This document shows, in pieces, positions 1,558 through 26,432 of a stretch of 64,000 nucleotides of DNA. How positions within the stretch are numbered: the first letter of the stretch is position 1; the number at the start of each line of letters is the position of its first letter. Source of the DNA: Bacteroidota bacterium. GTDB lineage: Bacteria; Bacteroidota; Bacteroidia; Bacteroidales; JAHJDW01. The DNA lies in NCBI GenBank assembly GCA_043800975.1, contig JAZDMK010000325.1:4001-68000 (forward strand), in the 5' to 3' direction. The position numbers and the translations under genes were made by a program. Below the pieces are notes generated by a model. It ran no database searches. It had not been told where the DNA came from and worked only from the letters and a program-made list of their open reading frames with translations.

Positions 1558-1625
1558 AGAAAACCTACTTGAAACTTCTTGTTAAGTGAATTTTAAGGTA
1601 AAAACAAACAAATTTATTAAAAAAG

Positions 1626-1654
1626 CGGAACCTTTTCAAACCTTGGGGCATTAA
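1626..1654 (+). promoter_or_regulatory. Module P3 copy a: CGGAACCTTT-N8-GGGGCATTAA (ECF-promoter-like)
   Basis: One of three copies (also 16747, 21815). GGAAC-to-GGGG offset is 18 nt in all three. It lies 58 nt before the ATG at 1712. Confidence 0.4.
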
Positions 1655-1662
1655 TCTTTAAA

Positions 1663-1692
1663 AGCGAATGCCGAAAAGCTGAAAGAGTAGGC
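1663..1692 (+). promoter_or_regulatory. Module P2 copy a (divergent): AGCGAATGCCGAAAAGCTGAAAGAGTAGGC
   Basis: Matches the CAGCGGAAGCCGAAAAGCTG-N-GA-N-AGAGTAGGC core found at four other sites. It ends 19 nt before the ATG at 1712. Confidence 0.45.
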
Positions 1693-1711
1693 AATATTTA
1701 AACTGAACAAT

Positions 1712-1870
1712 ATGATTTACCTGAGAAAAAACAAAAAACAGAAAAAAAGCATTTCACAGAGCAGGTTTTATTCATTAAAGAAATCCGAGCTTAACAAAAT
1801 CAAAGGCGGTGATGGAGAAGAGCCCACACCTCCATTACCACCCCCTCCTCCTCCAAATCCAAAAGGCTGA
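1712..1870 (+). CDS. Double-glycine-leader peptide precursor (52 aa), proline-rich core
   Basis: Hand-translated ORF below the track size cutoff: MIYLRKNKKQKKSISQSRFYSLKKSELNKIKGG-DGEEPTPPLPPPPPPNPKG. The ELNKIKGG ending resembles bacteriocin/GG-motif precursor leaders. Conserved modules P3 and P2 sit upstream. Confidence 0.55.
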   Translation: MIYLRKNKKQKKSISQSRFYSLKKSELNKIKGGDGEEPTPPLPPPPPPNPKG

Positions 1871-1969
1871 AAAATATTTTTAATCAGCACAAGCCAATAC
1901 CAGCGCGACATTCTGCCTCTTCATGAGGAGCGGAGAGGCAGGATGTTGAAATTATTTTCATAAAAAACC

Positions 1970-1997
1970 TAACATTTTTTCGAGTTGTCGGATTAAG
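1970..1997 (+). promoter_or_regulatory. Module P1 copy a: TAACA-N14-CGGATTAAG, in front of the sigma-factor gene
   Basis: Same bipartite motif and identical 14-nt spacer as at 3661, 11777 and 16933. It ends 10 nt before the ATG at 2008. Confidence 0.45.
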
Positions 1998-2007
1998 TAT
2001 TTGGAGA

Positions 2008-2571
2008 ATGGATTATAGCGACCGGGAAATATTAAATGGTATCGCAGCAGGCGATAGCCGTGTGATTAAATATTGCTATGCCGTTTTTGGTCCTAAAATC
2101 CGTAAATTCATTAAACAACGGGGAGGAGATGAAAGTGAGGCCGAGGATATTTTTCAGGAGGCCATGCTGATTCTCTGGGAGAAGAAAATGGAAAGCCTCA
2201 GTTGTTCATTCAGTTCTTTCCTGCACGCAATTTGTAAGTTCATACTCTATCGAAAAATTGAAAAGAATGCAAAAATGACCTATATTAGTGACATGGATTA
2301 TCTGGCGATGGATAATGATATCGAATTCCAAATAGAAAAAGCCGAAAAGCTATGGCTTATCGAAAAGCATATCAGCAAGCTGGGGCCGTCCTGCAGAGAA
2401 ATTCTGAACCTTTATAACAAAGGATGCAGTCAGTCGGATATCGTGGATAAGTTTAAGCAAAGCGACAGCTACCTCAGGTTCAAACGTTCTGATTGCAAAA
2501 AGAAATTAATTGAAAGCATTAAATCAGATCCCCAATATTTAGAAATCATAAATAACAAATCATATGAATAA
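2008..2571 (+). CDS. Sigma-70 family (ECF-like) RNA polymerase sigma factor
   Basis: 187 aa. Region-2-like DIFQEAMLILWEK and a region-4-like HTH near the C-terminus (CREILNLYNKGCSQSDIVDKF). Overlaps the next gene by 8 nt. Confidence 0.75.
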   Translation: MDYSDREILNGIAAGDSRVIKYCYAVFGPKIRKFIKQRGGDESEAEDIFQEAMLILWEKKMESLSCSFSSFLHAICKFILYRKIEKNAKMTYISDMDYLAMDNDIEFQIEKAEKLWLIEKHISKLGPSCREILNLYNKGCSQSDIVDKFKQSDSYLRFKRSDCKKKLIESIKSDPQYLEIINNKSYE

Positions 2572-3304
2572 AGCGGAACAAATTGAAAAGTATCTGGCCG
2601 GTGAGCTGACCGAACAGGAAAGCGCTCAACTATTACGTGAGGCTGAAGCAGATCCGGAACTGAAGCAGGAAATTGAATTACGCAAAACAGTAAACGACCA
2701 TCTGGATAATCGCGAACGAAGAATCTTTATGGATACGCTCAAGAAAACCGGATCGGAATATCATGCCGAGCGCCGCTCGAAACAAAAAATGATATGGCGG
2801 ATAGCCGCTTCTCTCCTGATTCTGCTGGCTATTGGTGTTACATTAATTTACACCCTGGGAACAACGCCAAAAGAAAATGTAGCGGATCTGTATAATAAAT
2901 ATTACCAAAGGCCGGAAGCACTTTCTGTCAATCGAAGCAACAGCACGACTGCCGATCAGCACTTGACTGACGGAATGGAACAATACAGTATACAGCGTTT
3001 TTCACAGGCTGAAAAAACTTTTCTCAGCATACTGAAAACCGATTCGCTGAATCAGACGGCATTGTTCTACACAGCCAGCAGCATGATGGAGCTGGGAAAT
3101 ACAACCGGTGCACTCACTTATTTTCAAAAGCTTGAAAAACTTCCTTCGGGAATTTATTCTGCACAGACATTCTGGTATGAAGGCTTGTGTCTGCTAAAAT
3201 CGGGTGATAACAAAGGTGCCCGGAAATGTTTCGAAAAAGCAGGCGAATTTTCACGTTACAAAAAAGATGCTTCAGAAATACTGAAGGAAATGGGTGACGA
3301 GTGA
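2564..3304 (+). CDS. Putative anti-sigma factor: single-pass membrane protein with periplasmic TPR-like domain
   Basis: Translationally coupled to the sigma gene. N-terminus IEKYLAGELTEQE is typical of Bacteroidota anti-sigma/FecR-like proteins. TM segment IWRIAASLLILLAIGVTLIYTL, TPR-like C-terminal part. Confidence 0.55.
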   Translation: MNKAEQIEKYLAGELTEQESAQLLREAEADPELKQEIELRKTVNDHLDNRERRIFMDTLKKTGSEYHAERRSKQKMIWRIAASLLILLAIGVTLIYTLGTTPKENVADLYNKYYQRPEALSVNRSNSTTADQHLTDGMEQYSIQRFSQAEKTFLSILKTDSLNQTALFYTASSMMELGNTTGALTYFQKLEKLPSGIYSAQTFWYEGLCLLKSGDNKGARKCFEKAGEFSRYKKDASEILKEMGDE

Positions 3305-3778: not shown

Positions 3779-5002
3779 ATGAATGAAATGAGCAAAGCGA
3801 AAAGCAAAGCACAACAGACCACAGTAACGGAAAATGCTATGTCTGCATTCCTTTTTGAGGAGAACCCTGCCGGGTTAATACGTGAAATGTATAAAAGCGT
3901 GAAAGGAATTGAAGATTGCAAAGTTTGTATACCTTTTACCCATAAGCCTTCCGACAACCTGTTTAGCGAGGGCTGCATGCATTGCATGTTTTCTGAAAAC
4001 CCGATGTTATACTCTTGCATACTCCGAGAAGGAAGTGAATTCAAGACACTGGTAATTTCTACAACATCGAAAAAATACGGGCACATTGTCTTGAAAATTA
4101 ATTCAGAATTTTCAATGAATACAATTCCTTTGCTTCAGCATCTGGCAAACACAGCTGCACTTGCATTAGAAAATCAGATACAGAAAAAAGTGTTTGAAAA
4201 AATGAATTTGAGCAGCAAGCAGTACAACGATAAGCTGATTGCGCAAAATAATGTAAAGGACAAATTGATTTCTATTATTGCCCACGATCTGAAAAGTCCG
4301 TTCACGGCATTGCATACTTCCTGCGAATTGTTAAGGCATCAGCTCTTCACTTTCGATGTGGAAAAAATAAAAAAGCATTCGGATACGATCTATTATTCTT
4401 CAAAAAATGCATACAAACTATTAAACGATTTGCTGAGTTGGTCGCGACTTCATTCGGGTCATATTAAAGTGAATAAAGATAAAATCAGCCTCTATGATAA
4501 GATACTGGAAATTCTTCAGGGACTGAAAGAAGCTGCCAGTGAGAAGGAAATTGAAATTGAAATAAAAATTAATGGAGACAGAGAAAGCGTTGGCTTTTTC
4601 GATAACTAAATGTTCAAGGCAATGATCCGGAACTTAGTGAACAATGCCATAAAATTCAGCTACCGGCAAGGAGTTGTGAGCATCTCGATCACAGATCAGA
4701 ATGAAAAGAATTATAAAATTTCTATAGCTGACAATGGGGTTGGTATAAGCAAAGAGAATCTTAAAAAATTGCTTGTGGGAGAAAATTTCCAGTCAACGCG
4801 GGGTACGATGGGAGAAAAAGGAAACGGAATGGGTTTGGTTTTGTGTAAAGATTTTGCAGAAAAAAACGATTCAGAAATTGTTGCTGAAAGTGTAGAATTA
4901 AAAGGCAGTGTTTTTAGTTTCTCTGTTGAAAAGTATACAGGGCAAAAGAAGCCGGGTTGTTACAAAAAAAAAGCGCAGGTAGCAGAACTACCAATTTCCT
5001 AA
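3779..5002 (+). pseudogene. Sensor histidine kinase interrupted by an in-frame TAA (or split DHp / catalytic-domain pair)
   Basis: ORFs 3779..4609 and 4610..5002 share one frame. The H-box IIAHDLKSP is in the first. The stop at 4607-4609 falls just before the N-box (FDN*MFKAMIRNLVNNAIKFS). The G-box GNGMGL is in the second. Confidence 0.6.
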
Positions 5003-5327: not shown

Positions 5328-8300
5328 ATGAAAAAGCTAACATTTATTTTCAGCGTTGTTTTGCTAGTGTTCTGTTGTTCCTTTTTAAAAGCACAGACCA
5401 ACGCAACAGGAGTTGATCCGGGAAAAAAGAAAATTACCAGATTAAGTAACAAGGTGTATGATACCTATGGAAGGGAGTACACCATGGAAGATATAATCAT
5501 TAAGAAAAAACCCGGTGGCGTAAAGGCACAGGAAACAGCCGGAATTTTCAGGCTGGATTTTGTGGACGGAGGCGGAACGGGTTTCTATGATGGCACACTG
5601 GGGAATCAGAGAAGAGCCGTAGCACTGCAGGTTTATGAAGACCTTAGCGGCTTAATAGAACATGCGATGAGTCCCTATACAACGATTGGGGAACTCGGCA
5701 CAACCCGTTTTGTAGAAATTCGGGTTTCTTCCATTGAAAATGCTTCAGACCCAATGCTGGGAATGGCAGGTCAGTTTTTTCCCGAATGGTCATTGGGAAT
5801 ATCACAAGGAACTGTTTGGCAAACACTCAATTCAGGAATTGATTTCTGGACGGGAATTGACGCATCCAATTTCGGGAATTTTGAATTTTACCATGGAACA
5901 CTTGAAATCAACTGGGGGAAGCCCATTTTCATCTGGGATGACCCTTATGGAGTCCCGGCGATGACGGCTGGTGAATATGATTTATACACGATTATATTAC
6001 ATGAGGCCATCCATCAGCTTGGTTTTGGCAGTTTAATTACTGGAAACGGAAACAGTTATATAACCGGCACTAATCCTGGTATTTATTCACTTTATGACAC
6101 TTACCTCACCGATGAGACAACAGGCAATCCTCTTGTAACATGGAACAGTAGCTATAATGCAACATTCAACACAGCCTATCTGGGGAACCTTACTTCATCT
6201 TGTTCAATTCAATTTGACGGTATTAACCCAACTTTTGTAACATCGCCAAATGTTTTTAACAGCGCATCCAGTCTGAGTCATTTTCCTACGTCTAACTGCG
6301 GAAACCCGAACATCTACCTGATGAACCCAAGCCTGACAGGAGGACCCGGCGGATTGCATCGCTTTTTGGATAACTCCGAAGTAACGGCATTATGTGATTT
6401 GCATTATGAAACAACCGGCGTTTTTCCGGGTCAGCCAGCACAACCTGTTTGTGGAACCCGTGTGGCAGGTGTGAATGACAACTGTGAATTTGTAGGTACA
6501 TTTGGAAACCCGGGAACTCCCGGAGTAAATTTTGCAACCGCACATGATGTTGACTTTACATTCAACTCTACCACCCTTTTAGCCAACGATGAAAATGCAA
6601 ACTGGTATGATGATCTGGAAGTAATGAACAGCTCAGGTACTCTGACAGGACTTACTTCGGGTGGGACAGGGAATACAATTGCGTTTAATCCGAATTCAAA
6701 TTTTGAAGGTGTCGCTATTCTAAGGTATGTACCGCGTGAAAGTGAGTTTGGACAAAGAGGTAATTATACGTATGTCTTCATAACAGTAATGCCTCCCGAT
6801 GTAATTTTACCAGCCTGTAATGCAACTGGTGAATGCGGTGAAAATTTGATTTGTCATGGTGACATTGAAGACATTCCTGCAATTATTGGGGGTAATCCAA
6901 ATCTTTCAGGAAGGCCGCTTTCGGATGCAGGAATTAATAACCTGCCTGCTACTAATTCCCCAGATCTTTTTCCAGTTTCAGGAATCGCCTATTTTAATCC
7001 AATTTTTTACTGTGGAAATGATCCTGGAGGCATAGTTCCTCCTCATGCCTTCTTAGGAGCAAATGTGCAGTACATGGGCCTTGGGAATCATCAGTCCAAT
7101 CGCGAAATCATTTATTTTCCGTTAAAATCTCCCTTAATAATTGGACAGTCATACAGCCTTAGCTTTTATGCTTATGGGGGTTGTGATGTGAATGTTCAGT
7201 TTCTTTTTAGTGAGAATCCCCCGTGCGGAGCCGATATGATTGATCCAACAGTTGGCAATACTACAGTTTGTGGTGGAGGTGGAAATTATACACCTGTTCA
7301 ATCTGAGATTTTACCAATTGATGTTCCAATACCAATGACGTGGACACTGTATCCACAGAATGTTATAATTAATCAACCAAACATCAATTATGTTGCGGTA
7401 ACGGTTATTCCTAACCCCAATAATGCGGGTGCATCAGAATACACCCTCTTTGACGACTTCTCTCTGGTAGCTATCAATCAAACAGAACTTACAACCACGC
7501 TTACCCAATCCGTTAATTCAGCATGCCCCGGAGAAAATGTTCAATATACGATTGAAGTATGTAACAATTCGGGCAACGATGCCGTTGATGTCAACATTAC
7601 TGATAATCTGCCTTCCGGTCTCACATTTCAGCCGGGTGGTACTTTTACATATCCTGTTACAAATATTCCTTTACTTGTGAATGGAGATTGTCAGGTGTTT
7701 ACACTCAATGCGCAGGTAAATTCAACATTGGGACCCTTGACAAATAATGTTCAACTGACGAGCGGTGGTTGCAATAGTACCCTAAGTTCTACTTCTGTTT
7801 CACTGGATATAGTGACCCAATCTTTATCACTTTCATCATCAACCAGTGCAAGTGTTGTTTGCCCGGGAACCACAATTCCGTATTCTATAGAGGTGTGTAA
7901 TCCAGAAGCAACCCCTGTAAACGGAATCGGATTACAAACAACGATCCCTGCTGGTTTTGCAGCAGTACCAGGTTCAGGGTATACCGTAACTCCAACCACG
8001 GTTACTTGGGATCCTTTTACACTGAACGGAGGTACTATCACAAACCCGGCATGTACAACCTTAGTAGTTCCGATAACTGTTAATGCAGCAACAGGCAATA
8101 TATGCACTGAAATTGTTTCAGGAGTTATACCTTGTAATAACAGCGAAACCTGCGTAACGGTTTCTTCAAATTATTGCAGTGCAACCCCCAGCATTACAAT
8201 TCCCAATGGGGCATTTTCAACAGCATTCCCTTTTATTGCGGAAGGAACACTTGTTGAAGTACTGGGTACATACAACATCAATTCCGATGTTACATACAGC

Positions 8301-10514
8301 GGAGTATTGTTTAGGATGAGCCCCAATGCCAGTATTGTTGTTCAATCGGGAAGCGATTTAACCTTAAGTGCATGCTTTTTATTTTCCTGTACAGGTCAAT
8401 GGACAGGAATCCGGGTACAACCTGGTGGAAGTCTGGTTAGCGGTAAAGGTACCGTGATTCAGGATGCAGTAAACGGGGTAACGGCAATGGCTTCTGCAAG
8501 CCCAACTGTTTTTCCATCATTAACAATTAATACAACTATTTTTAATCATAACTCCAATGGTGTGCTTATTGAATCCGTATTGGCAAATATGCAACCTACC
8601 AATTCAAATATCATTAAAAACACAATTTTCACAAACCGTGATCTTGGATGTTTTACTCCCGGAGTTGATTTCATGGCAGTGCTGAAAAATGACTTGATTA
8701 ATGAGAATTACACCAATTGGCCAGGATCAACCGCAGCTGGTACGTCGGGGATTAAAATCGCACTGAATACTGCTAATAACAACATATATACTATCGGTTT
8801 GCCTGACGCATCAAACTGGACAAATAACCTGAACATTTATGACAATCTTTCCTACGGAATCATTTCAATGAGCTCTAATATTCATGTTAAAAACTCTTTA
8901 TTCCAGAACCTGCTCGGTAACTCTTACAACAGCTCCAACCCTTCGGGTGTGGGTGTATTCTATTCAGGGTTGGAAAACAAATCCGTTACTGTAGGTAATA
9001 CAGTCAGTAACCTGAATTCAAATACCAACGAATGGAATAAGTTCAGAAACTGTTTGCGCGGTATCAGCGCCTGGTCAAGTAGTTTTATTAGCTCATTCAA
9101 CAATGTGTTTACCAATGCTACAACAAGCAGTACTTTCAGCGGTTCAGGCACCTTTAACAGGGGGGAATATGCAATTTTCCTTCAGCCGGTCTCAAGTCTG
9201 ACCACTTCAACACTCCGTATTGAACATAACAACATTTATAACTGCGCCACGGGTGTGTACATTAATCGTACTTCCTCTACACCAACTGCTATAGAAATCA
9301 ATATTGACTGCAACACGATGAGCTCGGGTAATCAAACCAATCAATACATGCAGCGGGGGATTTATCTGATAGATCCGATTACCAATACACCCACTATTGA
9401 TCTTGAAAAATACAGGATACGTTACAACAACATTAACAATGCAATCACCAATGCTATTTACGCTCAGAACGTAAAAAAAGGATTGTATATTTTTCAAAAT
9501 TCGCATTTATCCATCCTTTTCTACAGCAGTACCAGTCGGATTCAGGACATAGTCAAAACCCGTGACGTAATTCGTTTGGCAAGCTGTGCTAATGCAACGA
9601 TTCTAAATAACGGAGTCATTACCACTTCCAATGGTAATACGCAGAAAACAACAGAAGTCCTAACTGGTATTAATATTACTACAACGCCCGGCCTTACATT
9701 ATCAAATAATACTGTAAGCTATGTGGGAACCTGTATAGTGTTTACGGGTAATTGTGGTGCGTCAGCTCTCAGAAGCTCGTTCTTTACATTAAATACAATG
9801 AAAAGCGCAAAGTATGGTTTGTATATGAATACAGCTGCTTCTTTCAATATTCAGGGAAGCGGGCTGAATACTACAGGAAACAGGTTTGGGGAAATTGGTA
9901 CTGCCCCGAACAATCTTACTACAGGTCAGACATTCTGTAACAGCGGTACAAATATTAATGTAAATGCTCAAATGTATGTATATAATGTTGCGCCCAGCGG
10001 TGGACTTACTCATGTTCCCTACACGAACTTAGTGGGCCCGGCAACAGGATCTTCTGCATATACAGTAGGAAACAGCCCAAGCTTTGGTATTATCCGGTCA
10101 ACAGCAAGTCCCTATTTTGGGTTCGCCTGCCTCAACTGCAACTGCAATGCATACGGCACGCTGCCCAGCATGCTGGCACAGCCTGCTATTGTAAGTGAAA
10201 ATCCGGAAGAGAATACATTTGAAGAAAAGACTTTAAATGATGATTCTAATGCAGGTTTTGAAAATACCGTAAAAGTATATCCTAATCCCAATTCCGGTTC
10301 TTTCAAACTGCAGTATAACGTGAGAGAAGAAGGAACGCTGAACTTCCAGTTGTGCGATTATTCCGGAAAAGTAATTGTAAACAACCTGCTCGAAACCGGC
10401 GAAAAAACGGTGGATATCAATCTCGGTGATTATCCCGGCGGTATCTACTTCTATCGTCTGCTTTCCTCCGGTGGTGCAATGATCGCTTCGGGAAAAGTTT
10501 CGGTGATACGATAA
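5328..10514 (+). CDS. Giant T9SS-sorted surface protein: Zn-metalloprotease-like N-domain, DUF11-like repeats, beta-helix-like region, type A C-terminal sorting domain
   Basis: Signal peptide MKKLTFIFSVVLLVFCCSFLKAQ. HExxH motif ILHEAIHQLGFGS. Repeats resembling DUF11 (CPGENVQYTIEVCNNSGNDAVDVNITDNLPSGLTF). Asn-rich repeat region. C-terminus VKVYPNPNSGSFKL...GIYFYRLL...GKVSVIR. Confidence 0.8.
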   Translation: MKKLTFIFSVVLLVFCCSFLKAQTNATGVDPGKKKITRLSNKVYDTYGREYTMEDIIIKKKPGGVKAQETAGIFRLDFVDGGGTGFYDGTLGNQRRAVALQVYEDLSGLIEHAMSPYTTIGELGTTRFVEIRVSSIENASDPMLGMAGQFFPEWSLGISQGTVWQTLNSGIDFWTGIDASNFGNFEFYHGTLEINWGKPIFIWDDPYGVPAMTAGEYDLYTIILHEAIHQLGFGSLITGNGNSYITGTNPGIYSLYDTYLTDETTGNPLVTWNSSYNATFNTAYLGNLTSSCSIQFDGINPTFVTSPNVFNSASSLSHFPTSNCGNPNIYLMNPSLTGGPGGLHRFLDNSEVTALCDLHYETTGVFPGQPAQPVCGTRVAGVNDNCEFVGTFGNPGTPGVNFATAHDVDFTFNSTTLLANDENANWYDDLEVMNSSGTLTGLTSGGTGNTIAFNPNSNFEGVAILRYVPRESEFGQRGNYTYVFITVMPPDVILPACNATGECGENLICHGDIEDIPAIIGGNPNLSGRPLSDAGINNLPATNSPDLFPVSGIAYFNPIFYCGNDPGGIVPPHAFLGANVQYMGLGNHQSNREIIYFPLKSPLIIGQSYSLSFYAYGGCDVNVQFLFSENPPCGADMIDPTVGNTTVCGGGGNYTPVQSEILPIDVPIPMTWTLYPQNVIINQPNINYVAVTVIPNPNNAGASEYTLFDDFSLVAINQTELTTTLTQSVNSACPGENVQYTIEVCNNSGNDAVDVNITDNLPSGLTFQPGGTFTYPVTNIPLLVNGDCQVFTLNAQVNSTLGPLTNNVQLTSGGCNSTLSSTSVSLDIVTQSLSLSSSTSASVVCPGTTIPYSIEVCNPEATPVNGIGLQTTIPAGFAAVPGSGYTVTPTTVTWDPFTLNGGTITNPACTTLVVPITVNAATGNICTEIVSGVIPCNNSETCVTVSSNYCSATPSITIPNGAFSTAFPFIAEGTLVEVLGTYNINSDVTYSGVLFRMSPNASIVVQSGSDLTLSACFLFSCTGQWTGIRVQPGGSLVSGKGTVIQDAVNGVTAMASASPTVFPSLTINTTIFNHNSNGVLIESVLANMQPTNSNIIKNTIFTNRDLGCFTPGVDFMAVLKNDLINENYTNWPGSTAAGTSGIKIALNTANNNIYTIGLPDASNWTNNLNIYDNLSYGIISMSSNIHVKNSLFQNLLGNSYNSSNPSGVGVFYSGLENKSVTVGNTVSNLNSNTNEWNKFRNCLRGISAWSSSFISSFNNVFTNATTSSTFSGSGTFNRGEYAIFLQPVSSLTTSTLRIEHNNIYNCATGVYINRTSSTPTAIEINIDCNTMSSGNQTNQYMQRGIYLIDPITNTPTIDLEKYRIRYNNINNAITNAIYAQNVKKGLYIFQNSHLSILFYSSTSRIQDIVKTRDVIRLASCANATILNNGVITTSNGNTQKTTEVLTGINITTTPGLTLSNNTVSYVGTCIVFTGNCGASALRSSFFTLNTMKSAKYGLYMNTAASFNIQGSGLNTTGNRFGEIGTAPNNLTTGQTFCNSGTNINVNAQMYVYNVAPSGGLTHVPYTNLVGPATGSSAYTVGNSPSFGIIRSTASPYFGFACLNCNCNAYGTLPSMLAQPAIVSENPEENTFEEKTLNDDSNAGFENTVKVYPNPNSGSFKLQYNVREEGTLNFQLCDYSGKVIVNNLLETGEKTVDINLGDYPGGIYFYRLLSSGGAMIASGKVSVIR

Positions 10515-11932: not shown

Positions 11933-11965
11933 CAGCGGAAGCCGAAAAGCTGAGATAGAGTAGGC
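11933..11965 (+). promoter_or_regulatory. Module P2 copy b: CAGCGGAAGCCGAAAAGCTGAGATAGAGTAGGC
   Basis: Conserved core. Upstream TTGACA...TATTAAACCCAAATAATAAA is homologous to the extended module at 17414 and 21134. It lies 85 nt before the ATG at 12050. Confidence 0.5.
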
Positions 11966-12049
11966 GTTATTTCAAAACATAATCCTGCCTGTATTAAAAG
12001 TCCCGTACAGGCTGGCATTAAACCGGGACTCTCATTTAAATTAATAACT

Positions 12050-13156
12050 ATGACACTGACTAGGCCTTTTTACAACTGCCACATTCACACATTCTCTGAA
12101 CAGGATATTCCTGTTGATTTTTTTAAAAACAAAATCCTGATGGATTTTCTTAAAAGGCATACAACCGAGGAGTTGGCTGCCGATCTGATAGGATTCATTC
12201 ACAAGATTGAATTGCTGTTAAACATTAATGCAGAAGAAGCTGAAAAATATCTGCAGTTTTACCTGATCAGCAAGATGAATTCCCAGCGCCAAATTTTCGA
12301 CCGCTGCCGCCGCGGATATCCCGATGGTTCAAAGTTTTTTGTGCTGGCTATGGATATGGCTTTCATGCAGGCAGGCAATGTTCCCCGGAATTATATCGAG
12401 CAGCTTCGCGAATTATCGCAGGTAAATACCCAGCAAATTATTCCATTTGTGCACATTGATCCCCGGCGCGAAGGATATTTTCAGATACTGCGCGAAGCAG
12501 TAGAAACACTGGGTTTTAAAGGAGTGAAGCTTTATCCGCCTTTGGGTGTTTTCCCGTTTGATGAGCGGCTGGATCGGGTGTATGAGTATTGTGTTGATCA
12601 CAACCTCCCGGTGGTAAGCCATGGAAGTCCTCATAATCCGGTACATTTCAAAGGAAGTGAAAAAGATCTGCTAAAACTTCTTGAAAACAAATATTTTGAA
12701 GTTAATCCTAAAGGACTCAATTTTAAAGAACTTTGCGACATATTCACGCATCCGAAAAACTATGCGATTGTATGTGAAAAAAATCCGCTGCTCAAAATAT
12801 GCATAGCTCATTATGGATCTTCTTCCATGTGGGAAAAAAGGCTGAAGGATAAAAACGATGGCGACAACTGGGTGAATATCATTAACCGTATGATTCAGAA
12901 ATATCGCTACTTCTACACCGATATTTCTTATACCATGTACTTCGATGTAAAGAAACATGGCAGCAGTTTTTATAAAGAATTCAGCGAGCTGCTGGATAAT
13001 GATGCAGTGCGCAGAAAAGTATTGTTTGGTTCCGACTATTTTATGCCGGCTTCACAGGAAACAGACATGACCTATGCTCAGCGGTTGTGCAATGCCATAG
13101 GACCCGAAAAATTCAATGCCATTGCCGTAGAAAACCCAGAGGCGTTTTTAAGATAG
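12050..13156 (+). CDS. Amidohydrolase-family (TIM-barrel metal-dependent hydrolase) protein
   Basis: N-terminal HxH (FYNCHIHTF), GVKLYPPLG, PVVSHGS and FGSDYFM resemble Amidohydro_2-type motifs. No signal peptide. Confidence 0.6.
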   Translation: MTLTRPFYNCHIHTFSEQDIPVDFFKNKILMDFLKRHTTEELAADLIGFIHKIELLLNINAEEAEKYLQFYLISKMNSQRQIFDRCRRGYPDGSKFFVLAMDMAFMQAGNVPRNYIEQLRELSQVNTQQIIPFVHIDPRREGYFQILREAVETLGFKGVKLYPPLGVFPFDERLDRVYEYCVDHNLPVVSHGSPHNPVHFKGSEKDLLKLLENKYFEVNPKGLNFKELCDIFTHPKNYAIVCEKNPLLKICIAHYGSSSMWEKRLKDKNDGDNWVNIINRMIQKYRYFYTDISYTMYFDVKKHGSSFYKEFSELLDNDAVRRKVLFGSDYFMPASQETDMTYAQRLCNAIGPEKFNAIAVENPEAFLR

Positions 13157-13182: not shown

Positions 13183-13215
13183 CAGCGGAAGCCGAAAAGC
13201 TGTGATAGAGTAGGC
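13183..13215 (+). promoter_or_regulatory. Module P2 copy c: CAGCGGAAGCCGAAAAGCTGTGATAGAGTAGGC
   Basis: Conserved core ending 20 nt before the ATG at 13236. Confidence 0.5.
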
Positions 13216-13235
13216 ATTCACTTTTAATTTAATTT

Positions 13236-15110
13236 ATGTCAGGACCAGCTATTCACCACCTCGTTGCGAAAAACTTTGCTAACAAGTTAAAAGCAACATT
13301 ACCGCCCGATCAGTCTGCTATGGCGGAAAAACTAACAGCAGGCCACGCACCTTACTTTTTTCTGGGATCACAGGGACCCGATTTTCTTTTCTTTAACACA
13401 AAGGATATGGACCCTACGATCAGGAAATTTGTAGAAATGTATTATGATGTAGTTGATTTTATTGAGGAGTTTAAAAAAATGCTCATTGGGATTATTCCGG
13501 AAGAGTTGATTCAGGCTGTTGAAACATTGGAAACAGTCTGGGACAACCTTGTCGAGCGTTCATCTGCCATTGAAGAAATTACAGAAATTGCAGCTGATGT
13601 TTCAAACACAATTTCTCTTTTAAAAGCTAATTTGGAAGCAAAGGTTAAGGAATACATTACCGATAATGTAGAAGTATTCGATCTTCTGAAACATCCTATC
13701 CAGGATGGTCAGCCACACAAAGACTGGTGGTGGTTCGATACTTTACATTACAGAAGAACCGGACAGTATGCAGATGCACTCCTTAAAAATTCGCCCGTTG
13801 GTACTCCTGAACATGCTTATGCTTTAGGATACCTTTCGCATTTTGCATGTGATACGGTTGGACATCCCTTTGTCAACATTATTTCCGGTGGACCATACAG
13901 AACGCATCCCAAAAGGCATAAGCTTGTTGAAAATATGCAAGATGTATGGGCATACAAGAACTTTGCAAACAACGGAGAATTTATTCAAAGCAAATTATCA
14001 GAAGAATACAAGTTCAACGGAGATGCAACCAAGCTTCCTCCAAAATTAAACAAACTTATTTTGGATAGTATTCGTGATGTTTTTAACAAGAATGGCAGTA
14101 CTCAATATGGTAAATCCATGACTTCTTCTGATCTGGATGATGCATATAGAATGTGGATGACATGGTTTGAAAAAACAACAAATGCCCTGGATCTTCCACT
14201 GCCACAACCTTATTCTTTCACAGCCGAAATTCAAGAGGTTTGGGATACCTTTACAGATAATACCAGTGATATTTTTGACTGGGTTGGAAATTCAGGTGGT
14301 AATGGTGGAATCTTAGGTTTTTTAAGTTTTCTTGCAGCATTGATTCTGGCTCCGATATTACTCGCTGCTGCAGCAATTGATGCCATTGCAGGAGCCATTG
14401 CAACAGTCGGAGCAGCCGGAGCACGTTTTTTAATTTCACTTGCATACGAATTCCTGTATAATTCTTTCATGAATTTTCATCAGGGTGTTGTGCTGAACGG
14501 ACTGGCTTTTCCTTTCAAAAATCAACTCGATCATTATCTTGTAAAGCATGTGTTGAATTCAAGCAGTCCTGATGTAATTGGTAATAATGCAAATACATTT
14601 GCACCTCATTATCCTTTTGGTAAGTTTTCCCTTCCGGGACTTGAATCGGAAGGTCACCTCATTTATCCGTATCTGAACATCGAGAAGGATGCATGCACGG
14701 GCGCTCCCAAATCATATTTCGATGCTAATGCATCGCATTATATGTTTGGCAAGATTGAATTATCGGACAAAGCTTACAAGAAGTACATCGACTTTCAGGA
14801 GAAAAACGGAAATATGAATGAAGCAGATGTAAACGCACGTTTTGGTCAGTTACAGGCACAGGCTGCCAGAGATAGTCTGGGGAACGCTGTCGATCTGGGA
14901 AAATTTCTGTACAATAAATTTCTTGAAGGTAAAAAAATCGGAGACTTTAATCTGGATGCCGATAAAGGAATTGCTTTCCAATCGTGGCGTAAAGTAAAAA
15001 AGTTTTCCGATCTGAATGATCCGAATGCACCGCATGTTGCTGTAACTACCGACAACACCGTGCTGAATACAAGAACAGATATTATTAATCCTAACAATGA
15101 CATCTTATGA
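13236..15110 (+). CDS. Zn-dependent phospholipase C-like family protein with a central hydrophobic Gly/Ala-rich segment
   Basis: N-terminal pattern AIHHLVA...GSQGPDFLFF...DTLHYRRTG...GYLSHFACDTVGHPFVN resembles the Zn_dep_PLPC fold. The central segment GGILGFLSFLAALILAPILLAAAAIDAIAGAIATVGAAGA is membrane-like. No signal peptide. Confidence 0.5.
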   Translation: MSGPAIHHLVAKNFANKLKATLPPDQSAMAEKLTAGHAPYFFLGSQGPDFLFFNTKDMDPTIRKFVEMYYDVVDFIEEFKKMLIGIIPEELIQAVETLETVWDNLVERSSAIEEITEIAADVSNTISLLKANLEAKVKEYITDNVEVFDLLKHPIQDGQPHKDWWWFDTLHYRRTGQYADALLKNSPVGTPEHAYALGYLSHFACDTVGHPFVNIISGGPYRTHPKRHKLVENMQDVWAYKNFANNGEFIQSKLSEEYKFNGDATKLPPKLNKLILDSIRDVFNKNGSTQYGKSMTSSDLDDAYRMWMTWFEKTTNALDLPLPQPYSFTAEIQEVWDTFTDNTSDIFDWVGNSGGNGGILGFLSFLAALILAPILLAAAAIDAIAGAIATVGAAGARFLISLAYEFLYNSFMNFHQGVVLNGLAFPFKNQLDHYLVKHVLNSSSPDVIGNNANTFAPHYPFGKFSLPGLESEGHLIYPYLNIEKDACTGAPKSYFDANASHYMFGKIELSDKAYKKYIDFQEKNGNMNEADVNARFGQLQAQAARDSLGNAVDLGKFLYNKFLEGKKIGDFNLDADKGIAFQSWRKVKKFSDLNDPNAPHVAVTTDNTVLNTRTDIINPNNDIL

Positions 15111-16123: not shown

Positions 16124-16195
16124 TTATTATTTCAAAAAGGCGTTGCAAAAGGTAATGCCTTTTTGTTTTTCATTCTCAAAGTAAATACCCGAAAC

Positions 16196-17001: not shown

Positions 17002-17406
17002 ATGAAGTTGAACGTATTGTTTTCAGGGCTGATGCTGATAGGTTGTACAGCCCTCTTTGCGCAGACTCCCGCGATGGAGCTCGTTCCTGTTGCGGTGAAA
17101 GGTATTGCTATGTCGGGTGGGTTGAAGCTGAGTAAATGCTGCACCTACAGCCAGACCGATCTGAAAACCGAAGTATCCGAATGGCGCAAGCTGGAGGATT
17201 CAGGAATCTATGTGATACAAATGAAAGTAAGCTGGAAGGGTGGCGTAACGGGAAAAGATTATTGGATAAGCGGAAAACTTATCTGCGATTTGAAAGGCTG
17301 CCATGCGCGCTGGGAAAAGGAAAGCTACAGCGGCGGTTTTAACCCGAATTACGAAACCTATTGCCCGCTCGATTGCCTGGAGTTTTATGAGAAGAAAGGG
17401 AAGTGA
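17002..17406 (+). CDS. Small secreted protein or lipoprotein, unknown function
   Basis: Signal peptide MKLNVLFSGLMLIGCTALFAQ. 134 aa. Confidence 0.55.
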   Translation: MKLNVLFSGLMLIGCTALFAQTPAMELVPVAVKGIAMSGGLKLSKCCTYSQTDLKTEVSEWRKLEDSGIYVIQMKVSWKGGVTGKDYWISGKLICDLKGCHARWEKESYSGGFNPNYETYCPLDCLEFYEKKGK

Positions 17407-17444
17407 TATTTTTTTGAATGAATGTATTAACCCAACATAACAAA

Positions 17445-17477
17445 CAGCGGAAGCCGAAAAGCTGCGAGAGAGTAGGC
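17445..17477 (+). promoter_or_regulatory. Module P2 copy d: CAGCGGAAGCCGAAAAGCTGCGAGAGAGTAGGC
   Basis: Part of a ~75-nt stretch nearly identical to 21134-21205. It ends 21 nt before the ATG at 17499. Confidence 0.5.
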
Positions 17478-17498
17478 ACAATTAAACTATCAATCTCT

Positions 17499-18962
17499 AT
17501 GAAAAAAGGAAAATTTAGGTTTTTAACAATCGTTGCACTTGCAATGCTTACAAGCGCAAGTTACGGCCAGTTTAATTTTGGCTCAAATGGAACACTTGGC
17601 ACTTATAGCAGTGCCTCAGGAACAAATAATCAGGCAACGGGGAATTACTCATTTGTATCTGGCAATTATTCAAAAGCAAACGGATCCTACTCAGCAGCTT
17701 TAGGATATTACAACGATGTTACCGGTTCACAAGGTTTTGCGGCAGGATACAGCAATCTCGTTTATGGATCGATGGCGAGCATTGGTTTAGGTTACAGAGC
17801 CTATACAAATGGTCAAACAGCAGTTGCCGTTGGATACCATGTAAAGGCTCAAGCCAATAGATCTTTTGCATTTGGCGCAGGTGTGGACTATAGTAATTTC
17901 TTAATAAACAACACTGAAAATTCATTGATGGTAGGTTTCAACAGTAATATTCCAACGTTATTTGTAGGACCTTCAACAGGTGTGGGTACAACAGGAAGTG
18001 TTGGTATTGGCAACAGTGCACCCACCAAAAAACTGGATGTAACCGGTGATGTTGGTTTATCAGGTTTCCTATATGTAGGGGGTTCTGATTTAAGATTGGG
18101 TATGAATGACGGACGCGCTCAGGGATCCATCTTAACAAACCGGGCATTGGTTCATGGTAGTAATACAAGTACCGATGATTTGGTTTTAAATTATGGTGGC
18201 GATTTTGAAGCAGGAATTCGTTTAGCAGGTTCTAAAGTCATTGCTGAAGGAAATGTAGGTATTGGAAATTCGACGAATTATGCTCTTAATATTAACGCAA
18301 ATGTTAGTAATGAAAATCTTTCAAACGGAATTTGTCTGCAGTCTACTTCATCTGCTTGTATCGACTGGCGTTATGGATCCACTGGTATTTATCAGGCACG
18401 TATTCTGTACAATCAGAGTACATACGATATGGGCATACAGAACCTGACCAACGGTTCGATTATTTTCATGGCCAACAGCGGACAAATGAGATTAACTTCA
18501 GCAGGCAGACTTGGTATCAGCACAGCCACACCTATGGGCAAACTTCAAGCATCTTGTAATGATGGAAACTGGAGCTATGGAATCGTTTCTTCAGCCGATG
18601 CTACCAGCTATCCAAACACAAAATCACTCGTAGTGTATGATGAAAGTACTTCAACAGAAAATTTTGTTGTGTATCCTACCGGAAAAGTATATGCAAGAGA
18701 AATCACTGTGAAAACAGGTACTTTGCCTGACTATGTTTTTGAAGACAACTACAAATTGAAAAGCTTATCCGAACTGGAATCTTTCATCAAAGAAAACAAA
18801 CATTTACCCAATGTTATTTCTGCGGTAGAAGCTGAAAAAAATGGTGTTGATGTGGGTGAAATGAACAGAGTTTTGCTTGAAAAAGTTGAAGAACTTACAT
18901 TGTATATTATCGATATGCAGAAGCAAATTGATGAATTAAAAAAGTCAGATTCTAAAAACTAA
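17499..18962 (+). CDS. Tail-fibre-like secreted protein: YadA-head-like repeats and a coiled-coil C-terminal domain
   Basis: Start moved to MKKGKFRFLTIVALAMLTSASYGQ, because the P2 module occupies the upstream part of track ORF 17418. Repeats SGTNNQATGNYSFVSGNYSKANGSYSAALGYYNDVTG. C-terminus PDYVFEDNYKLKSLSELESFIKENKHLP...VEELTLYIIDMQKQIDELKK is typical of Bacteroidota 'tail fiber domain' proteins. Confidence 0.65.
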   Translation: MKKGKFRFLTIVALAMLTSASYGQFNFGSNGTLGTYSSASGTNNQATGNYSFVSGNYSKANGSYSAALGYYNDVTGSQGFAAGYSNLVYGSMASIGLGYRAYTNGQTAVAVGYHVKAQANRSFAFGAGVDYSNFLINNTENSLMVGFNSNIPTLFVGPSTGVGTTGSVGIGNSAPTKKLDVTGDVGLSGFLYVGGSDLRLGMNDGRAQGSILTNRALVHGSNTSTDDLVLNYGGDFEAGIRLAGSKVIAEGNVGIGNSTNYALNINANVSNENLSNGICLQSTSSACIDWRYGSTGIYQARILYNQSTYDMGIQNLTNGSIIFMANSGQMRLTSAGRLGISTATPMGKLQASCNDGNWSYGIVSSADATSYPNTKSLVVYDESTSTENFVVYPTGKVYAREITVKTGTLPDYVFEDNYKLKSLSELESFIKENKHLPNVISAVEAEKNGVDVGEMNRVLLEKVEELTLYIIDMQKQIDELKKSDSKN

Positions 18963-18982: not shown

Positions 18983-19663
18983 ATGAAAAAGTTGTTTTTC
19001 TTATTATCATTTTTATTAATGGTAATTGTATCACAATCTCAAGATATCAAATTTGTCGTGCAAGAGAAATTGAATGTTGGTTTGGATATGATTAAAGACT
19101 TTAAATACGTCAATAATCAATATTTATTCTTAAACAAATCAACTCTGAAGACAATGGATATGAAAGGGAATGAATTGAATTCTAAGAGTGTTGAAGGTGT
19201 TAATGGATTTGATTGGTCTGATGGGAAGATTCAGACGATTTCATCCAAAAACAACATCAATAGTAACACAAAATATTCTGATAAATATAGTTTGGAAATG
19301 AAATTTCTTTCTCCATATGAAGATGGGTATTTTACCTGCAAAGTTATTACTGCTGGAAATTCTGTTTCATATAGTAGTGCTATTGTTTTCGTTGATAACA
19401 GCGGAAACGAAAAAATCTTTGACTATATTGAAGGTGTACCTTCCGGCCTTTTTGAAAAAGACGGAAAACTTTATTACGTGCTTAGCAAAAACGTAAAAGG
19501 AGAAAATGGGTTTCTGAAAGTTTATGATATTATGACAAAATCGAATGCAGGCATTGAAGAAATACCTGTTGTTGATCCAGTTGGCATAAGCATAGATACA
19601 GAAGGTAATTTCTACTCTTATTCTTCTTTTACAAATGAAATCATTAAATTCAGGAGGAAATAA
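18983..19663 (+). CDS. Secreted hypothetical protein
   Basis: Signal peptide MKKLFFLLSFLLMVIVSQSQ. 226 aa. Confidence 0.55.
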   Translation: MKKLFFLLSFLLMVIVSQSQDIKFVVQEKLNVGLDMIKDFKYVNNQYLFLNKSTLKTMDMKGNELNSKSVEGVNGFDWSDGKIQTISSKNNINSNTKYSDKYSLEMKFLSPYEDGYFTCKVITAGNSVSYSSAIVFVDNSGNEKIFDYIEGVPSGLFEKDGKLYYVLSKNVKGENGFLKVYDIMTKSNAGIEEIPVVDPVGISIDTEGNFYSYSSFTNEIIKFRRK

Positions 19664-19664
19664 T

Positions 19665-21053
19665 ATGAAAAAAATCATTCTTATAATATTAATTGCTTTT
19701 TCTTCCTCGTATGTAAAAGCTACAAATTACGCTATACTTGTTTCTGCCGGACTAGCTACAATTGATGATGCGTTCAGCAACAGTGAATATTGGTACGACC
19801 TGTATCTTTCTTATGAAGATCTTATCATAAAGGAAGGATATGATGAAGACAATGTCTTTGTTTTTTATGGAGCCGGATCCGATTTCACAGCAACCACCAA
19901 AGACCGTTATAAAATAGGCTATCATGGTTGGACGAATCCGATTACGGACTTTAACAACTCCTATTCAACACTTGTAACACAATTCACGGCTATTGGAAAT
20001 ACAATAACCAGCAATGACAATGTTGTAATAAGGTGGGTTGTCGGTCATGGCGGAAATGCTGGAAGTAATGATAATTACTCAGCATTGATTCAGAATACAA
20101 GTCAAAATGTTAGTGAAGCGCAGATTCAAAGTTTGGTTTCTCTTATCCCGAATTATAATAGAAAAAGTATAATTTGGATGACATGTATGAGTGGTTGTTT
20201 GGTGAAAGGAAGTTCTACCTTAAACTATGCCCGAACGTCTGTACTTACCAGTTCTGACTGGGATGAGTATTCCTACGGCGCGTATTATCCGGAAGGCCAT
20301 GCAGAGTTGAACTATGTTGTAAACAGCTCTTTGTACGGACAGGATTATGCGGGTACAACATACAATGGTGATCAGAATAATGATCACATAATTAGCTTCA
20401 ACGAACTTTATCTGGAAACGCAAAACAGCACCCCGGCTATGCAGTCTGAAACTCAGTTGGGCAATGCCTGTTCAATTGCAAACAGGGATTATATCAGTGA
20501 ATCCATCCTCCTTGATAATGCTACTATAAGCAATACACAGGACTATGCAACGCGTTTCATTAATGCAAATAATTGTACTGTTAGCAGCAGCGGGATTGTA
20601 CATTTTGTTGCTCAGGAAAAAACGGTATTGTCAATTGGTTTTCATGCAAGTTCTTCTTGTCAGTTTCATGCCTATTTAAGTAATGAAACCTGCGCTGGCG
20701 TTTTGAAAGAAGTTAATAACTCGACCAGTAATAACAATGAAGTCGAAGAAAATGAATACTTCATTTCTCAGCTTCATGGAGTTAATCAAGCAGTTTCTGA
20801 AAACAATTCCGAAAGTTCATTTGATCTTTATCCCAACCCAGCCAATGGAGCTTTCACTATTCAGGTAAATAATATCACATCCGAAGAAGGTATTCACATT
20901 GAAGTGGTTAATTATACTGGAAAAATAATTGAGAGCCTGGTTACGAACACATCAAAATGTGTATTCGATTTATCGAACCAACCCAAAGGGATATACCTGG
21001 TTCGTGTAAAACATCAGGATAAAATTTTTACTAAAAAACTGATCATTCAATAA
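19665..21053 (+). CDS. Clan-CD-like (legumain/caspase-type) cysteine peptidase with T9SS type A sorting domain
   Basis: Start at MKKIILIILIAFSSSYVKA. NYAILVSAG, candidate catalytic His (WVVGHGG) and Cys (WMTCMSGC). C-terminus FDLYPNPANGAFTIQV...GIYLVRVKHQDKIFTKKLIIQ. Confidence 0.5.
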   Translation: MKKIILIILIAFSSSYVKATNYAILVSAGLATIDDAFSNSEYWYDLYLSYEDLIIKEGYDEDNVFVFYGAGSDFTATTKDRYKIGYHGWTNPITDFNNSYSTLVTQFTAIGNTITSNDNVVIRWVVGHGGNAGSNDNYSALIQNTSQNVSEAQIQSLVSLIPNYNRKSIIWMTCMSGCLVKGSSTLNYARTSVLTSSDWDEYSYGAYYPEGHAELNYVVNSSLYGQDYAGTTYNGDQNNDHIISFNELYLETQNSTPAMQSETQLGNACSIANRDYISESILLDNATISNTQDYATRFINANNCTVSSSGIVHFVAQEKTVLSIGFHASSSCQFHAYLSNETCAGVLKEVNNSTSNNNEVEENEYFISQLHGVNQAVSENNSESSFDLYPNPANGAFTIQVNNITSEEGIHIEVVNYTGKIIESLVTNTSKCVFDLSNQPKGIYLVRVKHQDKIFTKKLIIQ

Positions 21054-21070
21054 TGGGTTATTAATCCTTA

Positions 21071-21104
21071 GAAAACCGGTAATACTATTTGCCGGTTTTC
21101 TTTT
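21071..21104 (+). terminator. Rho-independent terminator
   Basis: GAAAACCGG-N12-CCGGTTTTC followed by TTTT. Confidence 0.7.
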
Positions 21105-21165
21105 ATTGAAACACTTAAGAGATGTTGTATTTTTTTGAACGAATGTTTTAACCCAACATAACAAA

Positions 21166-21198
21166 CAGCGGAAGCCGAAAAGCTGAGACAGAGTAGGC
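21166..21198 (+). promoter_or_regulatory. Module P2 copy e: CAGCGGAAGCCGAAAAGCTGAGACAGAGTAGGC
   Basis: Extended homology from TTTTTGAACGAATGTTTTAACCCAACATAACAAA. It ends 21 nt before the ATG at 21220. Confidence 0.5.
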
Positions 21199-21219
21199 GA
21201 TAATTAAACAACTATTTTC

Positions 21220-21726
21220 ATGGCTTTATTAAACGAATTAACGCTCGATCAAATGGTCGACCAGGCATTAGAAATGCAGAATCTTTCCGAAAATGATTTG
21301 CTCGTTAAGATGGGCACCATCATGGACAACAACGGATATCAGGTGTTGACTGCAGGCCCGCTTCTTTCAGAAGTTCATCAGGAAGGACATCTTTCTGTAA
21401 AAAGCATTGTGGCATTTCACACAGCTAAAGAACTTTCAACTGATGATCCCAAAGAAGAAGGAAAACGTTTTATCGATCGCTTGCTGGCTCAAATCAAACA
21501 TGAGATCTGTACAAACAAAAACATTTATAACTGGCTTGTGAATGATAATTCCGATCTTAAGAAAGAAGCTATCAAAAAAATTATCAGCATTGCCCTCACA
21601 ACACTCGGGTTAGCTGTTGCCGGTTGGGTCATTGCATTGCTTGTAGTTGCCATTGCTTTTCTACTTAAGCAGGGATATATTGCATTTTGCTCTCCTTTAT
21701 GGGACACCGAAGGTAAGCCCGTTTGA
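21220..21726 (+). CDS. Hypothetical tail-anchored membrane protein
   Basis: Soluble N-terminal domain with a C-terminal TM segment IISIALTTLGLAVAGWVIALLVVAIAFLL. Confidence 0.5.
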   Translation: MALLNELTLDQMVDQALEMQNLSENDLLVKMGTIMDNNGYQVLTAGPLLSEVHQEGHLSVKSIVAFHTAKELSTDDPKEEGKRFIDRLLAQIKHEICTNKNIYNWLVNDNSDLKKEAIKKIISIALTTLGLAVAGWVIALLVVAIAFLLKQGYIAFCSPLWDTEGKPV

Positions 21727-26072: not shown

Positions 26073-26093
26073 CAACCAACTCAACGAACCCCA

Positions 26094-26432
26094 ATGAGTA
26101 ACCCCTCCGATATCTCCACCCTCACCGCAGCCCTCATCCAATTCCGCAACGAACGCGACTGGGAACAGTTCCATAATTCAAAGGATCTCGCGCTCGCCAT
26201 TTCTATCGAAGCAGCCGAGCTGCTGGAATGCTTTCTGTGGAAAGGGAATGAAGAAGCCGACAAAGAAAAGATCAAAGAAGAACTGGCCGATATTTTTGCA
26301 TTTGCATTTCTGCTGGCTGATAAACACAAGTTGGATGTGAAAGAAATTGTGCTGGATAAAATCAAACGCAACTCCGAGAAGTACCCTGTTGATAAGGCAA
26401 AGGGAACGGCGAAGAAATATGATGAACTATGA
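26094..26432 (+). CDS. MazG-like nucleotide pyrophosphohydrolase
   Basis: FRNERDWEQFHNSKDLALAISIEAAELLECFLWK and EELADIFAFAFLLA are typical of small all-alpha MazG/dCTPase-type NTP-PPases. Confidence 0.7.
   Translation: MSNPSDISTLTAALIQFRNERDWEQFHNSKDLALAISIEAAELLECFLWKGNEEADKEKIKEELADIFAFAFLLADKHKLDVKEIVLDKIKRNSEKYPVDKAKGTAKKYDEL

Follow-up and report, generated by a model that had tools for sequence, protein, structure and literature searches.

The 64,000-nucleotide stretch of Bacteroidota bacterium DNA analysed here (assembly GCA_043800975.1, contig JAZDMK010000325.1, positions 4,001 to 68,000 of the forward strand), hereafter called the window, carries five copies of a short conserved leader element, designated a to e, all on the + strand and each located in front of an open reading frame (ORF) of the same strand. 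Copy a (1663-1692) ends 19 nt before the ATG of an ORF for a 52-amino-acid GG-leader peptide (1712-1870), copy b (11933-11965), the copy originally flagged, ends 84 nt before the ATG of an ORF for an Amidohydro_2 protein (12050-13156), and copy c (13183-13215) ends 20 nt before the ATG of an ORF whose product is similar to Zn-dependent phospholipase C (13236-15110). Copies d (17445-17477) and e (21166-21198) each end 21 nt before the ATG, of an ORF for a 487-amino-acid secreted protein with a weak YadA-head match (17499-18962) and of an ORF for 168 amino acids with no family match (21220-21726), respectively. The original prediction for this DNA had placed five + strand copies at these positions, which the sequence confirmed together with four of the five distances to the ATG; only the distance of copy b had to be corrected, from 85 to 84 nt. 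All five modules are copies of the DUF805b RNA, an already catalogued family of Rfam (RF02914).

The covariance model of RF02914 (type Cis-reg, clan CL00115, gathering threshold 35.6 bits) matched each of the copies over model positions 1-35 of 35, with scores of 43.7 (a), 46.7 (b), 49.7 (c), 44.1 (d) and 46.1 bits (e), all above the gathering threshold; the search of Rfam cis-regulatory motifs which had been suggested in the original prediction returned the same family for every copy. Copy a also scored 42.0 bits with a covariance model built here (R1). RF02914 is described as a hairpin with a 12-nt loop cGGAAgCCGAAAAg followed by a single-stranded tail AGAGUAGG, in potential 5' untranslated regions (UTR) on the same strand as genes of Bacteroidota. 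The window copies share the hairpin, the loop GGAAGCCGAAAA and the tail, and lie 19-84 nt before the ATG of same-strand ORFs. None of the five ORFs in the window matches PF05656 (DUF805), which was encoded by 3 of the 110 downstream ORFs sampled; the DUF805 association is an enrichment behind the family name and is not required by the model. The DUF805 RNA motif is a sister family in the same clan, hence related in sequence and structure; only the best match is reported per clan overlap, and this was always DUF805b here. The DUF805b RNA originates from a comparative screen that yielded 224 motifs and is not discussed in the main text of that report (Weinberg et al. 2017, PMC5737381). No description of its function was found in the searchable literature, where the family is mentioned only by name, as a benchmark in a single paper on an alignment method.

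The 25-nt core pattern GCCGAAAAGCTGNNANNGAGTAGGC had four matches in the window, compared with 0.00 expected from 100 shuffles. Copy a departs from this core in having a linker that is 2 nt shorter and GAAT replacing GGAA. No sixth copy was found in the 64 kb with either the Rfam model or the covariance model built here, even at E ≤ 1. The register of the copies was read from the sequence. With the pairing scheme obtained from the comparative set, CAGC (11933-11936) of copy b pairs with GCTG (11949-11952) to form helix P1 and GCC (11941-11943) pairs with GGC (11963-11965) to form helix P2; GGAA (11937-11940) constitutes loop L1, GAAAA is found at 11944-11948 and the AGAGTA of the tail at 11957-11962. 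The corresponding parts of copy a are AGC (1663-1665) with GCT (1678-1680) as P1, the loop GAAT-GCC-GAAAA (1666-1677), the tail AGAGTAGG (1684-1691) and GCC (1670-1672) with GGC (1690-1692) as P2.

One genome per species was scanned with the pattern GGAANCCGAAAAN{6,9}AGAGTAGG, which placed no constraint on the hairpin arms, on the loop base N or on the base following the tail. The pattern was present at at least 119 loci, nearly all in Bacteroidota and in every class of this phylum, and the matches listed, to which the counts below refer unless another set is named, also included metagenome-assembled genomes of Ignavibacteria, Kapaibacteria and Chlorobiota. The three bases before GGAA can pair with the three bases after GAAAA in 96-100 % of these matches, all four Watson-Crick types being represented. 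The N of GGAA-N-CC and the base after AGAGTAGG were G/C in 67 matches, T/A in 23, A/T in 21, C/G in 6 and G/T in 3, with 3 mismatches. Among 124 distinct sequences this N/N' pair was GC in 70, UA in 23, AU in 20, CG in 6, GU in 3 and another combination in 2. In the same 124 sequences 99.3 % of the cells were paired, compared with 71.0 % after shuffling (0 of 500 shuffles reached the observed value), and the covariation score was 0.63, compared with 0.12 in shuffles and ≤0.10 when the partners were slid.

Since the NCC of the loop covaries with the 3' GGN' and the arms of P1 covary with each other, the element is a compact H-type pseudoknot, with a P1 of 3-4 bp and a P2 consisting of NCC paired with GGN'. 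It is approximately 33 nt long and has a 12-nt loop (G)GAA-NCC-GAAAA, the NCC of which pairs with the GGN' that ends the invariant tail AGAGUAGGN'. The pairings also hold in copies outside the strict pattern, obtained with the covariance model or a looser pattern, in which L1 (GGAA) is replaced by GATA, GAAT, GAAA, GGAT or CGAA and NCCGAAAA and AGAGUAGGN' are unchanged. The length of the linker varies by 4 nt among copies, and unpaired nucleotides are invariant in the conserved structured element. The covariance model output of RF02914 contains the hairpin only; the pairing between loop and tail, absent from that output, has strong support here. The original prediction had favoured a shared leader, and missed both its identity as RF02914 and the pseudoknot. 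In the element, GGN' is immediately preceded by AGUA and NCC is immediately followed by GAA, AGUA and GAA both being invariant. The combination 5'-AGUA-3'/5'-GAA-3' adjoining a Watson-Crick helix is the signature of the sarcin-ricin/loop E (bulged-G) module, and from this likeness in sequence AGUA/GAA may form an S-turn, by which P2 would be prolonged into a rigid surface for recognition.

The position of the element relative to genes is narrowly defined. An ATG-initiated ORF of at least 40 amino acids begins 10-39 nt past the motif in 100 of 123 instances among the matches listed, the distance being 19-25 nt in 70 of the instances, with a mode of 21, and the motif is always on the coding strand relative to the downstream gene. 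When an upstream ORF is present on the same strand, the copy begins less than 40 nt past its stop codon in 22 of 81 cases, and copies adjoining divergent genes are never less than 60 nt away from them. In the window, copy c begins 26 nt past the stop of ORF 12050-13156 and copy d 38 nt past the stop of ORF 17002-17406 (+), with no terminator-like site between the genes in either case, and the hairpin scan identified terminator-like hairpins at 16133-16165 and, upstream of copy e, at 21070-21101. It is most likely that copies c and d lie within polycistronic mRNAs, and the genes between 12050 and 16123 are probably on one transcript with an internal control element. The element occurs at 5' ends and between cistrons, and need not be the 5' end of a transcript. 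The proposal that the module is a 5' UTR leader was correct in regarding it as an RNA element, and too narrow in placing it at the start of the transcript. For copy d, the signal peptide of the encoded protein starts at 17499, and use of the upstream in-frame ATG at 17418 would require reading through the motif; the start of this ORF is 17499, not 17418.

No promoter box at a fixed distance upstream of the motif was found among 126 instances from other genomes, in which the only feature upstream of the hairpin was A-richness just 5' of P1. The Bacteroidetes boxes TAnnTTTG and TTTG were considered as a conserved upstream promoter and rejected, their excess being faint and limited to -16 to -5 (9 of 126). 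Within the window, the stretches 17411-17484 and 21131-21205 are near-identical, as the original prediction had noted, and copy b also has part of that upstream stretch. Because nothing upstream of the hairpin is conserved in other genomes, the likeness of approximately 35 nt upstream of copies b, d and e is a local duplication; the similarity reported there is real, and is not a property of the element. The hexamers TTGAAT/TTGAAC-N17-ATAACA, which had been read as promoter elements, occur (as TTGAAY-N17-ATAAYA) only at copies b, d and e, those with the local duplication, and matches of this sigma-70-like type occur at chance frequency in the A+T-rich region of the window (50, compared with 53.9 expected from shuffles).

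Between the motif and the start codon there is an unstructured, A/U-rich and G-poor spacer and initiation region, of the Bacteroidetes type that lacks a Shine-Dalgarno sequence, located at 13216-13235 for copy c and at 1693-1711, 17478-17498 and 21199-21219 for copies a, d and e, respectively (all +). When the spacers of motif-linked genes were anchored on the ATG, A was found at -13/-12 in 76-80 % and at -3 in 66 %. Compared with 321 ORFs of the same loci, the starts of which were called heuristically, A was more frequent at -13 (78 versus 52 %, p = 5e-6), -12 (78 versus 48 %, p = 3e-7) and -3 (65 versus 48 %, p = 0.006), and the 17 nt before the ATG contained 2.5 rather than 4.5 G+C (p = 8e-14). 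In experiments on Flavobacterium johnsoniae, A at -3, -6, -12 and -13 raised initiation, and an A-run at -14 to -11 is general in Bacteroidetes start regions (Baez et al. 2019, PMC6847099). Motif-linked genes thus carry the general Bacteroidetes start pattern in extreme form. The ATTAAAC-like word, which the original prediction had included in the module, is anchored to the ATG and belongs to this generic A-run. The minimum free energy (MFE) folds of copies d and e hinted at a switch based on pairing between the tail AGAGUAGG and either the spacer or the start codon, which was rejected. In 93 instances the complementarity of the tail AGAGUAGG to the start showed no excess over control starts (p = 0.99) or shuffles (p = 0.66), and accordingly no conserved start-hiding switch was seen.

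The genes behind the element are diverse. Among the matches listed, 110 downstream ORFs represented 44 Pfam families, none of which was present in more than four ORFs. The commonest were DUF6520 (four), the type IX secretion system (T9SS) sorting domain (four) and DUF805 (three), and others included outer-membrane barrels, SnoaL-like proteins, rhodopsin, beta-lactamase, Hcp, a phage tail collar domain, a PG1828-family lipoprotein and a histone-H1-like protein. By our own reading of the sequences, GG-leader, bacteriocin-like or RiPP-like (ribosomally synthesized and post-translationally modified peptide) products account for about one-sixth of the downstream ORFs; NCBIfam names among them were leader_Chryseo (four), CCPGW (two), one pinensin and one TIGR04149. 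Several consecutive genes often have a copy each, as in the window (five) and at loci L014 (five), L002, L050 and L221 (three each).

The element is also used by phages. When IMG/VR was scanned with a looser pattern (loci L120-L239), both P1 and P2 were intact in 97 of the 126 viral matches listed, with a spacing of 17-27 nt to the ATG, and ParB-like proteins made up 15 of the 69 distinct downstream proteins, a preferential placement in viral contigs of Bacteroidota. The cultured Flavobacterium phage vB_FspS_lillamy9-1 (NC_048835.1) has exactly one copy (12781-12815, 52.1 bits), which occupies the 59-nt gap between gp40 and the ParB-like gp41, starting 4 nt past the gp40 stop and ending 20 nt short of the gp41 ATG. 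That the motif is common in phages argues that the reader of the element is supplied by the host and is common to the phylum.

The spacing fixed relative to the start codon, the placement per cistron, the independence of promoters, the optimal start regions, the unrelated genes and the use by phages together point to cis-acting control of translation initiation through a conserved host partner, an interpretation which is favoured with moderate confidence. The element would act in cis on initiation of the single ORF behind it. Its partner would be conserved across Bacteroidota and also be exploited by the phages of these hosts, the likeliest candidates being the 30S subunit/S1 or a phylum-wide RNA-binding factor. 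Such a partner would dock on the pseudoknot, at the 5' boundary of the region where the ribosome lands, and would thereby fix or gate a high rate of translation of that cistron; the net effect could be either activation or regulated repression. In the T4 gene 32 leader and the Escherichia coli rpsO/S15 operator, the latter docking on the 30S platform, a pseudoknot likewise precedes an unstructured A/U-rich stretch that runs up to the start codon; both are operators acting at initiation in the autoregulation of a single gene, whereas DUF805b precedes hundreds of unrelated genes across the phylum and in phages. As with a Shine-Dalgarno (SD) sequence, the distance to the start codon is narrow (mode 21) and the element is present per cistron. 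We know of no complementarity of DUF805b to the 3' tail of the 16S rRNA. A narrower version, which can be put forward only tentatively, is that DUF805b is a folded ribosome-docking signal, a functional SD substitute placed by Bacteroidota and their phages about 21 nt upstream of selected start codons, which would give those ORFs, including internal cistrons, privileged translation on ribosomes that ignore SD sequences, the AGUA/GAA S-turn contacting the 30S platform or S1. The SD sequence and the A-rich start determinants of Bacteroidetes (Baez et al. 2019, PMC6847099) are likewise spaced within about 3 nt, and DUF805b co-occurs with A at -12, -13 and -3; those are linear signals at -5 to -14, whereas DUF805b is folded and has its 3' end at about -21.

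Several observations weigh against control of initiation by this route. Nearest-neighbour folding of the five window leaders was not better than that of shuffles (z from +0.6 to -1.5), in a model which cannot score pseudoknots or tertiary contacts and says little for 3-bp helices. No classic highly expressed housekeeping genes were seen behind the element in the sample, and such genes might be expected of a pure ribosome-docking enhancer. The spacing is not absolute, since copy b lies 84 nt from its ATG and a subclass (L001, L002, L065 and L080) has a spacer of approximately 50 nt with an extra hairpin. Tandem copies, present in L009 and L064, are found more typically in sensors of ligands or proteins than in a docking site that depends on spacing, and the comparison of start regions depends on the heuristic calling of the control starts.

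A signal acting at the level of DNA, whether a promoter for an alternative or extracytoplasmic function (ECF) sigma factor such as that encoded at 2008-2571 or an operator for a DNA-binding regulator, would be in keeping with the operon headed by copy a, which contains a sigma-70-family gene and a TPR gene for a possible anti-sigma factor, with the same arrangement in L088, and with the TTGAAY-N17-ATAAYA hexamers just upstream of copies b, d and e. The conserved positions covary, however, as Watson-Crick pairs, 22-25 nt apart as well as within the hairpin, and not as conserved boxes, and the motif has one orientation only relative to genes. It is found in phages and in intergenic gaps of less than 10 nt, the gaps that hold it being in the range of <10-40 nt, and the hexamer matches are at chance level. 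The sigma factor has few homologues (5 in 5.8 billion proteins), and one was near only 2 of the 119 motif loci listed. The ECF-sigma promoter, an idea derived from the sigma gene that follows copy a, was ruled out by the covariation, the rarity of these homologues and the short intergenic gaps. The alternative-sigma promoter that the original prediction had entertained was also contradicted by the lack of a fixed upstream box and by the location of copies c and d, and of about one-quarter of the copies elsewhere, less than 40 nt past an upstream stop, and DNA-level signals in general are considered very improbable. The preference expressed there for a shared leader RNA over a promoter was upheld by the compensatory changes in the hairpin and in the loop-to-tail pairing, by the restriction to the coding strand and by the fixed distance to the start. 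A dispersed repeat with no role in expression, such as a mobile-element remnant or a single-stranded DNA hairpin, might be suggested by the multiple copies per locus and the locally duplicated flanks of b, d and e. It is extremely improbable in view of the strict orientation and distance bias relative to start codons (the original prediction had named a repeat lacking such a bias as grounds for abandoning the module, and the bias is strong), the absence of transposases associated with the copies, flanks that differ between genomes, and a structure kept across the phylum.

Two further explanations act at the level of RNA. The pseudoknot might be a riboswitch, that is, an aptamer for a small molecule or ion reporting a global state (a second messenger, an alarmone or an ion), the ligand altering translation of the ORF, and such a role is possible, albeit rather unlikely. 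A tiny, extremely conserved pseudoknot with invariant unpaired nucleotides would suit an aptamer, and the preQ1-I and guanidine-III aptamers are of the same size class. The tandem copies in L009 and L064 would suit one too, the extra helices in copy b and in the ~50-nt-spacer subclass could be expression platforms, and second-messenger riboswitches are known before mixed gene sets. Like preQ1-I, guanidine-III and SAM-II, DUF805b consists of ~35 nt with two short helices and conserved loops just upstream of a start codon. Those riboswitches sequester the SD sequence or the start codon and precede coherent gene sets, whereas the start region of DUF805b stays free and its genes are unrelated; no sequence match to the Rfam families of preQ1-I, guanidine-III or SAM-II appeared at E ≤ 1. 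The downstream genes, those of phages included, form no coherent pathway, and this mixture argues against a metabolite-specific riboswitch. Moreover, no conserved alternative pairing was found for the tail AGAGUAGG, its complementarity to the spacer and start codon being no greater than in controls, a terminator downstream of the motif is missing from typical copies, and separate copies for consecutive genes and the use before phage ParB-like genes would be unusual for a metabolite sensor. Alternatively, the element could act in RNA stability or processing, by blocking 5'-end-dependent decay or marking an endonucleolytic site, such that the downstream cistron accumulates as a stable species. 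The location at likely 5' ends and between cistrons, the mixed downstream genes and a Bacteroidetes -7 box 5-16 nt upstream at some loci, which would place the motif at the extreme 5' end, are all compatible with this. Such a function would, however, need neither near-invariant loops throughout a phylum nor a spacing within ±3 nt of the ATG, and it leaves the co-occurring optimal start region unexplained, and a role in stability or processing is regarded as improbable.

As sequence features the five modules of the window are ordinary, being new instances of a known family. The interest lies in the family itself, a functional orphan that bears on the choice and ranking of start sites by the SD-less ribosomes of Bacteroidota. 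It is an element found throughout the phylum, used by phages, present per cistron at about -21 from the start and coupled to the strongest known determinants of the start region. DUF805b thereby offers an easily mutable handle on SD-less initiation and is a candidate portable expression part for engineering of Bacteroides and Flavobacterium. In annotation, the motif marks the starts of five ORFs in the window.

Variants of the leader were observed in the window and elsewhere. The leader of copy b contains an insert (11984-12030, +) of two interleaved inverted repeats, 11984-11993 with 12006-12015 (10 nt, 90 %) and 11999-12005 with 12024-12030 (7 nt, 100 %), which has the layout of a second putative H-type pseudoknot, of which this is a single example. 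The insert ends 19 nt before the ATG at 12050 and occupies the place normally held by the DUF805b motif, and in the MFE fold the DUF805b tail of copy b can pair with 11984-11993. In the subclass with a spacer of ~50 nt (including three paralogous small genes in L002 and two in L065) a YTTTTT-loop-AAAAAR hairpin is located just before the ATG and would sequester the A-run of the start region; these leaders often precede small proteins beginning 'MA(R/K)(F/S)W(Y/F)..'. Two DUF805b units are in direct tandem before one ORF at L009:1324-1396 (-), where the ORF encodes a lysine/alanine-rich histone-H1-like protein, and at L064:1404-1473 (+) and approximately 765-834 (+).

The C-terminal approximately 100 amino acids of the protein behind copy d (17499-18962) share 46 % identity with the C-terminal end of a Tenacibaculum protein (L075:730-1671, -), the gene of which also has a DUF805b copy upstream, suggesting the possibility that motif and gene travel together. 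The ORF behind copy a is followed by the sigma-70-family gene (2008-2571, +) and the gene for the TPR protein (2564-3304, +). A cassette of motif, GG-leader peptide gene or genes, sigma-70-family gene and TPR gene is present in two distant Bacteroidota, at 1-3304 of the window and at L088:1967-7419, the latter from a metagenome-assembled genome of Roseivirgaceae with two GG-peptide genes and an adjoining, divergent large TPR gene. The sigma proteins of the cassettes consist of 187-192 amino acids, the membrane TPR protein is a candidate anti-sigma factor, and a large TPR gene on the opposite strand adjoins. The cassette looks like a peptide-linked sigma/anti-sigma signalling unit. It is a side matter and not the key to the motif; the sigma homologues are rare.

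Elsewhere in the window, HisKA and HATPase_c domains are encoded on adjacent ORFs (3779-4609 and 4610-5002), which may represent a split histidine kinase or a frameshift or stop introduced in the assembly. T9SS C-terminal sorting domains were found in the proteins encoded at 5328-10514 and 19635-21053, one of which has 1728 amino acids with DUF11 and cadherin-like repeats, and secreted and surface proteins seem to form an island in the first 22 kb of the window. At 22922-26432, genes for a DEAD/RecQ-like helicase with a C-terminal phosphoribosyltransferase domain, DprA (DNA_processg_A) and a MazG-like protein follow in a row and could form a DNA-processing or defence cluster.

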